Origin: Escherichia coli | GTDB lineage: Bacteria; Pseudomonadota; Gammaproteobacteria; Enterobacterales; Enterobacteriaceae | Direction: 5' to 3' (one strand) | Length of the DNA: 1,058 nt | Assembly: GCF_003334335.1 (NCBI RefSeq) | Contig: NZ_QOWQ01000126.1 | Part shown: positions 44 to 196 of the stretch, piece after piece | Layout: every line of letters starts with the position of its first letter | Position numbering within the stretch: position 1 is the stretch's first letter | The notes under the pieces: model-generated | Databases searched by the model: none | What the model saw: the letters and a program-made list of their open reading frames with translations, nothing else | What the model was told of the DNA's origin: nothing | Program-made: the position numbers and the translations under genes

Positions 44-196
44 CTAATCGCCTGATGCTTTCTTTTTCAGCAACGGGGAAGCAACAACCACCACACCCGC
101 CACCAGCACACCGTCAGCCAGCACTGACATTATCCGGCTGCTGAAGTCCACCATCACCACCAGAAACAGCAGGAGCGCAACCACAGCCAGACGCAT
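44..196 (-). CDS. Hypothetical small hydrophobic membrane peptide, 50 aa, not in the supplied ORF track.
   Basis: Manual translation from ATG 196..194 to TAG 46..44: MRLAVVALLLFLVVMVDFSSRIMSVLADGVLVAGVVVVASPLLKKKASGD. Two hydrophobic stretches and a basic KKK C-terminal tail. The start is 8 nt after the TerB-family stop, consistent with co-transcription or translational coupling. Only a weak SD-like GACGG precedes the ATG, and the region is low-complexity, so it could be a chance ORF. Confidence 0.3.
   Translation of the reverse strand: MRLAVVALLLFLVVMVDFSSRIMSVLADGVLVAGVVVVASPLLKKKASGD

Follow-up and report, generated by a model that had tools for sequence, protein, structure and literature searches.

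The closest described counterpart of the gene studied here is tciB of phage P1, whose product (gp75) is 54 aa long and which lies immediately downstream of the TerB-like gene tciA and overlaps it. The TciB-type names in P1 rest on homology (P1 record notes; PMC9603915). The P1 pair adjoins phage tRNA genes, including a CAT-anticodon tRNA-Ile, and is followed by a third small gene, tciC (35 aa). A second point of reference is provided by the contingency loci of Haemophilus, Neisseria and Campylobacter, which carry long perfect homopolymers or arrays of 2-7-nt units and show high-frequency variation within clones.

We analysed a 1058-nt stretch of E. coli DNA (the window), which belongs to the late part of a lambdoid prophage of E. 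coli and is 100% identical to a stretch of the E. coli JE86-ST05 chromosome (NZ_AP022815.1). The annotation of NZ_AP022815.1 gives the minus-strand order Q, DNA methyltransferase, tRNA-Ile(CAT), tRNA-Arg(TCG), tRNA-Arg(TCT), TerB, DUF3927, SASA-family esterase, holin, lysozyme and lysis genes. The window carries the following features.

44-208, minus strand: gene for a DUF3927/TciB-like small hydrophobic protein, 54 aa (ORF list, Pfam, PHROG, RefSeq)
205-636, minus strand: TerB-family 'TciA-like' gene, 143 aa (PHROG 632, RefSeq annotation, PF05099 on orthologues)
775-792, minus strand: terminator-like G+C-rich hairpin with T-run between tRNA-Arg(TCT) and the TerB gene (consensus scan only)
807-883, minus strand: prophage tRNA-Arg(TCT) (ARAGORN, Rfam RF00005, RefSeq annotation)
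897-973, minus strand: prophage tRNA-Arg(TCG) (ARAGORN, Rfam RF00005, RefSeq annotation)
983-1058, minus strand: CAT-anticodon tRNA, tRNA-Ile (ileZ-like) in RefSeq (ARAGORN, Rfam RF00005, RefSeq annotation)

The small gene shares with P1 tciB its position behind and overlapping a TerB-like gene and its neighbourhood of tRNA genes with a CAT-anticodon tRNA-Ile. The two 54-aa proteins align without internal gaps at 44% identity and have the motif VDFTS...SVL.DG.LV...WP.LK in common, and P1 TciA is 42% identical to the TerB protein of the window. The host elements differ, P1 being a phage-plasmid and the present pair lying in the late operon of a lambdoid prophage; P1 continues with tciC, and the next annotated gene here is a SASA/NanS-p esterase gene, ~500 nt downstream. 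A C/A-rich tract within the small gene (86-175) had been flagged as prone to slippage and as a possible off-switch of the peptide. We consider it highly probable that this tract is ordinary minus-strand coding sequence, codons 12-41 of a TciB-like protein, that it acquires indels at repeat sites, and that it does not serve as a switch.

The 54-aa product of the small gene (VTVKMRLAVVALLLFLVVMVDFSSRIMSVLADGVLVAGVVVVASPLLKKKASGD) matched Pfam PF13064 DUF3927 (E = 1.7e-18, residues 5-51 against positions 4-50 of the 53-position model) and PHROG 1470 'TciB-like' (E = 3.1e-24, residues 1-51 of 54), and in the identical record NZ_AP022815.1 RefSeq annotates precisely this interval as WP_001672426.1, a 'DUF3927 family protein'; NCBIfam has no model for the peptide. 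The DUF3927/TciB-like proteins are a catalogued family, and the gene is already known. A tblastn search of the phage collection with the 54-aa peptide returned no match, probably owing to the low-complexity filter, and P1 and the other phages were reached by way of the TerB neighbour. On the minus strand the gene runs from a GTG start (206-208) to a TAG stop (44-46), and the GTG overlaps the TGA stop of the TerB gene (GTGA). This overlapping GTG was conserved, and other alleles have CTG where the window has an in-frame ATG at codon 5; on the strength of the sequence comparison, the gene starts at this conserved GTG.

An alignment of 25 family members that included P1 TciB, together with a hydropathy scan, revealed the traits of the family, namely a length of about 50-55 aa, two hydrophobic stretches around a polar motif and a conserved P45 before a basic tail. 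P45 was invariant among the 25 members, and D21, F22, S28, D32 and L35 were at least 90% conserved. In the window protein, the hydropathy scan placed DFSSR between the two hydrophobic stretches. AlphaFold2, supplied with the 25-sequence alignment, modelled residues 2-51 as one unbroken helix (mean pLDDT 90, pTM 0.48); a helical-hairpin model of the protein was considered and was not confirmed by this one long helix. In the membrane the protein may adopt either a hairpin or one span plus an interfacial helix.

The product of the upstream partner gene matched PHROG 632 'tellurite resistance' over its full length (E = 6.5e-69, residues 1-143 of 143), PF05099 is precomputed on its orthologues, and RefSeq names it 'tellurite resistance TerB family protein'. 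PADLOC gave no convincing match for either protein (none for the peptide, one at E = 0.003 for TerB). The TerB gene was called longer than 143 aa in two loci, at 836-1504 of L014 (222 aa) and 1010-1504 of L029 (164 aa); these long N-terminal extensions may reflect a different choice of start codon or a fusion to sequence lying upstream.

The surroundings of the pair are those of known phages. The tRNA part of the window matched many Stx2 phages (argN, argO, ileZ), and the TerB/DUF3927 part matched phages Evi and JLK-2012, whose records name the two genes tciA and tciB. The pair occupies the slot that stx holds in Stx phages, in the late operon downstream of the tRNAs. Between tRNA-Arg(TCT) and the TerB gene, the hairpin at 775-792 (minus strand; GGCTCGCTTTTGCGGGCC, then a T-run) resembles a terminator, and expression of TerB/DUF3927 may therefore depend on Q-mediated read-through, as far as a consensus match can suggest; the window held 2 terminator-like sites against 1.4 expected in shuffles, which makes this weak evidence. 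At a permissive threshold, Rfam detected the three tRNAs in the window and sub-threshold noise, and nothing else. A 2026 preprint (bioRxiv 10.64898/2026.05.13.724894) names TerB (PF05099) as one of the genes that most often lie no more than 10 kb from the prophage sRNAs PasA and PasC.

The first-pass annotation had described the tract as a C/A-rich, low-complexity stretch made up largely of CA, CCA and CAC units. Its parts are as follows.

86-175, minus strand: the flagged C/A-rich tract, codons 12-41 (LLLFLVVMVDFSSRIMSVLADGVLVAGVVV) of the DUF3927 gene (composition, ORF translation)
82-112, minus strand: C/A-rich block 1, 94% C+A, encoding the second hydrophobic segment, residues 33-43 (GVLVAGVVVVA) (composition, hydropathy)
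113-147, minus strand: central segment, 51% C+A, encoding the most conserved motif of the family, DFSSRIMSVLAD (composition, family alignment)
148-187, minus strand: C/A-rich block 2, 80% C+A, encoding the first hydrophobic segment, residues 8-21 (AVVALLLFLVVMVD) (composition, hydropathy)

The skew itself was borne out. On the plus strand, C and A make up 72.2% of the tract and 53.0% of the window as a whole, and the tract is the most C/A-rich and, by trinucleotides, the lowest-complexity 90-nt stretch of the window; the observed maximum of 75.6% C+A was reached by none of 2000 mononucleotide shuffles. It is not uniform, however, since two skewed blocks flank a centre of ordinary composition (113-147), in which D21, F22, S28 and D32 of the encoded motif are near-invariant. 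The description by CA, CCA and CAC units holds loosely: no unit of 2-6 nt occurs in three perfect tandem copies in the tract, and Tandem Repeats Finder reported only a weak 15-nt period (87-124, 2.6 copies, score 44). The DUF3927 gene contains no homopolymer other than two T5 runs (63-67 and 196-200), both of which lie outside the tract. The first string quoted for the tract begins at position 82, not 86. The statement that the minus strand encodes the Val/Leu-rich core of the small hydrophobic ORF was correct, the tract being codons 12-41 of the gene at 44-208.

The skew is accounted for by the Val, Leu, Gly and Phe codons of the encoded peptide. When synonymous codons were resampled by E. 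coli usage, the expected G+T content of the coding strand came to 70.5 ± 2.9%, and the observed 72.2% does not exceed this significantly (p = 0.34). The homologous tract was 69-74% G+T in other alleles and less skewed in P1 (61%), and the TerB gene has 52% G+T on its coding strand. Local direct repeats of 6 nt were modestly enriched in the tract (5 observed against 1.3 ± 1.35 expected, p ~0.03). GTG supplies 10 of the 14 Val codons, and its use probably contributes to this enrichment.

Substitutions in the tract followed the codons of the minus strand. Between the window and the O157-type allele there were 12 differences at third positions against 5 at first and second positions; counted by codon, 10 changes were synonymous and 3 non-synonymous. 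Other allele pairs showed a similar pattern. To obtain an unbiased sample of lengths, we picked 80 viral contigs by TerB similarity alone, covering three allele families with ~20% nucleotide divergence. Tract length was unchanged in 76 of the 80, and 3 carried a 9-nt duplication. The remaining contig (L052) had tract insertions amid several scattered 1-nt insertions; this contig and L058, which has a 1-nt deletion just past the start codon and outside the tract, contain several scattered 1-nt indels and were treated as error-laden. In one further TerB-selected locus, a nonsense codon interrupts the DUF3927 gene close to its 3' end. Across the family, the spacing from R6 to P45 was constant in all but three of the 25 members, down to 43% identity, and most protein homologues were 54 or 55 aa long, the extra residue of the 55-aa O157-type protein lying in the C-terminal tail, outside the tract. 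A core length so tightly constrained from lambdoid prophages to P1 argues that the TciB-like peptide is real and functional. The alleles compared show a pattern of purifying selection, which preserves the frame of the tract and, with few exceptions, its length.

The comparison of tract length across genomes, which the first-pass annotation had proposed, showed that homologous loci differ and that length is not identical everywhere. Alleles of 54, 57 and 60 aa and deletion alleles were found, so the suggestion that length variation could alter the peptide was well founded. In the DNA alignment, every tract-length variant sat at a short direct repeat, inside the tract or at its edge, which is what slippage or a microhomology mechanism would predict. 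The sites include the following.

148-162, minus strand: indel hot spot, coding strand TGGTGGTGA then TGGTGG, 1.67 copies of a 9-nt unit (DNA alignment)
103-124, minus strand: 7-nt direct repeat GTGCTGG (CCAGCAC on the plus strand), copies at 103-109 and 118-124 (TRF, repeat D1)
91-105, minus strand: 15-nt stretch deleted between TGGT microhomologies, 49-aa allele P0097 (L026 in the alignment)

The 9-nt unit encodes Val-Val-Met, and alleles with one copy (54 aa), two copies (57 aa, LVVMVVMVDF) and three copies (60 aa) were identified, as was one allele with two copies and an extra TGG (58 aa); the protein variants at this site are P0013, P0014 and P0017. These correspond to separate events, from one to two copies, from two to three copies and the added TGG. 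Three or more separate events at one site, together with the repeat excess (p ~0.03), suggest faster-than-average mutation there. A 15-nt deletion that removes one GTGCTGG copy and the spacer (ADGVL) was present in one assembly (L027, 49-aa protein), the deletion of 91-105 was read in 12 contigs, and the loss of one Val codon in the tract was found in one contig (P0008). In intact loci with TerB, the reliable tract-length changes were all multiples of 3 (3, 9, 12, 15 and 18 nt), although frameshifts in otherwise intact loci could be under-counted because protein-level searches under-sample frameshifted copies. Save for the 9-nt duplication, these in-frame changes were mostly rare. The earlier proposal that the tract is slippage-prone thus gained weak support from the indel hot spots at short direct repeats; the tract has no true simple-sequence repeat of the type that causes slippage at high frequency.

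The copy number of the Val-Val-Met unit could be adaptive, with the length of the first helix (~16, 19 or 22 residues) tuning how active the TciB-like protein is or which partner it prefers. The two-copy allele is indeed common, occurring in 443 contigs compared with 472 for the one-copy S44 form (the exact protein of the window) and at least 1000 for the one-copy F44 form, and it occupies intact TerB-DUF3927 loci in several prophage contexts. The three-copy and two-copy-plus-TGG alleles extend the same series, and the first hydrophobic segment is short, which makes lengthening functionally plausible. However, outside one allele family, and in P1 as well, the first segment is fixed, so that extra residues appear to be tolerated, not needed; at >=99% identity, the two-copy allele was present in only 7 of 5426 complete genomes. 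In this allele the first copy of the unit contains GTG or GTA, and it was found on three backgrounds (S44, F44 and a TPDC tail; also with ASGD tails), which points to age and recombination, or to recurrence. Recombination among lambdoid prophages can explain the spread across backgrounds, and we regard adaptive tuning as unlikely. That the 9-nt unit at 148-162 is a recurrently expanding, in-frame 'dial' of protein length, which alters the TerB/TciB module through its first membrane helix, seems to us very unlikely. The 9-nt copy-number polymorphism of a conserved coding tract is a minor new detail.

Phase variation would make the tract a contingency locus, in which slipped-strand mispairing in CA-, CCA- or CAC-like units switches the peptide on and off. 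The length variants described above, all at short direct repeats and with several events at the same 9-nt site, are of the kind that such a locus would produce, and in many genomes the peptide is cut short by a 1-nt deletion within the tract. This deletion, in the CC at window positions 91-92, creates the frameshifted end …GVWLLLSRC*. It was found only in a remnant locus in which window positions 1-187 are fused to 842-1058 (L002, L004); the 654-bp deletion of positions 188-841 takes out codons 1-7 of the small gene, the entire TerB gene and part of tRNA-Arg(TCT). The remnant was present in ~325 complete genomes at >=99% identity over 157 nt, the median copy number being one, and 7 of 7 remnant rows sampled from the top of the ranking were 100% identical. 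Inherited near-unchanged, without a start codon and without its partner gene, the remnant points to decay of a dead gene and not to switching. Singletons in error-laden contigs aside, its 1-nt deletion was the only tract change that was not a multiple of 3. The reliable variants of intact loci, by contrast, were all in-frame, and in many loci the 9-nt copies differ by a synonymous GTG or GTA, which suggests an old, stably inherited allele. The tract holds no homopolymer or short-unit array with three perfect copies, and known phase-variable tracts are much longer than the repeats here. Neither a long perfect array nor frequent frameshifts among near-identical intact loci were found. We therefore judge phase variation highly improbable, and the off-switch that had been proposed for the peptide did not hold up, the frameshift being confined to the decayed copy.

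Other decayed or frameshifted copies of the gene were also encountered. The remnant described above often lies near iraM, and RefSeq still annotates in it a 38-aa 'DUF3927 family protein'. A second common remnant (L005, L009, L010; approximately window positions 44-143) retains only the last two-thirds of the gene, at the 3' end, preceded by unrelated sequence, and accounted for ~40% of the sampled E. coli records with a match; it has no TerB and lies ~500 nt from the tRNAs. It is annotated as 43 aa, VIAYCFCEWHCSSRIMSV… ('VIAYCFCEWHC…'), the 5' half of the gene having been replaced. Other common remnants are cut by an IS element and are likewise without TerB. Among O157-type protein records, many have frameshifted tails that result from single-base changes in the AAAAAGAAA run at window positions 60-72, just 3' of the tract. 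The frameshifted C-terminal tails (…VIKETACIMLDF…, …VIKRTACIMLDF…) were considered as evidence of switching and were not counted, as they map to A5/A3 runs outside the tract. The strain-named records with tail frameshifts come from draft assemblies of the DEC collection and may be homopolymer sequencing errors.

The idea that the C/A-rich sequence acts on the plus strand, as the 29-aa Pro/Gln-rich ORF at 55-144 or as an RNA or DNA element, with the minus-strand ORF incidental, is essentially refuted by substitutions that follow the minus-strand codon phase. Against it also stand the matches of the minus-strand protein to Pfam and PHROG families and to P1 TciB, an Rfam result limited to tRNAs further along the window, and a region upstream of the tract with no promoter-like plus-strand site.

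The reading of the tract as ordinary coding sequence of a TciB-like gene explains these observations as follows. The C/A richness is the complement of the G/T-rich codons (GTG, CTG, GGT and TTT) that build the two hydrophobic segments, and the centre of ordinary composition encodes the conserved polar motif VDFxSRxMSVLADG. Repeated use of GTG and TGG creates short direct repeats, at which slippage or microhomology-mediated events probably produce the indels. Intact loci keep only in-frame variants, chiefly one to three copies of the Val-Val-Met unit, which lengthens the first hydrophobic segment, and a frameshift was found only in copies that were already non-functional. The GTGA overlap suggests that translation of TerB and DUF3927 is coupled. 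Judging from their location, with the tRNAs on one side and the nanS-p and lysis genes on the other, both genes are probably transcribed late, under antitermination by Q, and the TciB-like peptide may be a membrane partner of the TerB-like TciA. The compositional oddity is the mirror image of membrane-helix coding sequence in a catalogued phage gene family, and as such it matters little. Annotation of these loci, and their use in typing, should take account of the common 9-nt polymorphism and the widespread decayed remnant.

Compared with the contingency loci of Haemophilus, Neisseria and Campylobacter, the tract is similar in having short motifs in a coding region and length changes there, one of them frame-shifting. 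It differs in that its longest perfect array is shorter than three units and that its variants are lineage-stable and, in intact genes, in-frame.

The gene pair finds its counterparts in other phages. DUF3927 lay directly downstream of the TerB gene in the window, in P1, in the N4-like phage Pollock, where a clear DUF3927 gene follows TciA as it does here, and in all intact E. coli loci examined. In the Erwinia jumbo phage ChrisDB this position is taken by a small hydrophobic 'WPLIK' protein of divergent sequence; Pseudomonas phage PMBT3 and Vibrio phage D505 carry a TerB gene but no DUF3927 gene. Three types of phage that are unrelated to one another have a TerB/TciA and TciB-like pair beside tRNA genes: in the lambdoid prophage (window positions 205-1058), Ile(CAT), Arg and Arg lie upstream of the pair; in P1 (L111, 616-2276), Asn and Thr lie upstream of tciA/tciB and Ile(CAT) directly after tciC; and in ChrisDB (L112, 86-1309), Trp and Cys lie upstream of the pair.

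A further parallel is offered by DjlA, which combines an N-terminal transmembrane segment with a TerB-like domain. The TerB product matched the TerB-like part of the NCBIfam model for DjlA (NF006948) at E = 1e-6, far below the curated cut-off. Unlike DjlA, the present system has no J domain, and anchor and TerB domain are encoded by separate genes. By analogy, the anchor-plus-TerB arrangement of DjlA may be reproduced here in two polypeptides, a soluble TerB-like protein and a tiny membrane protein.
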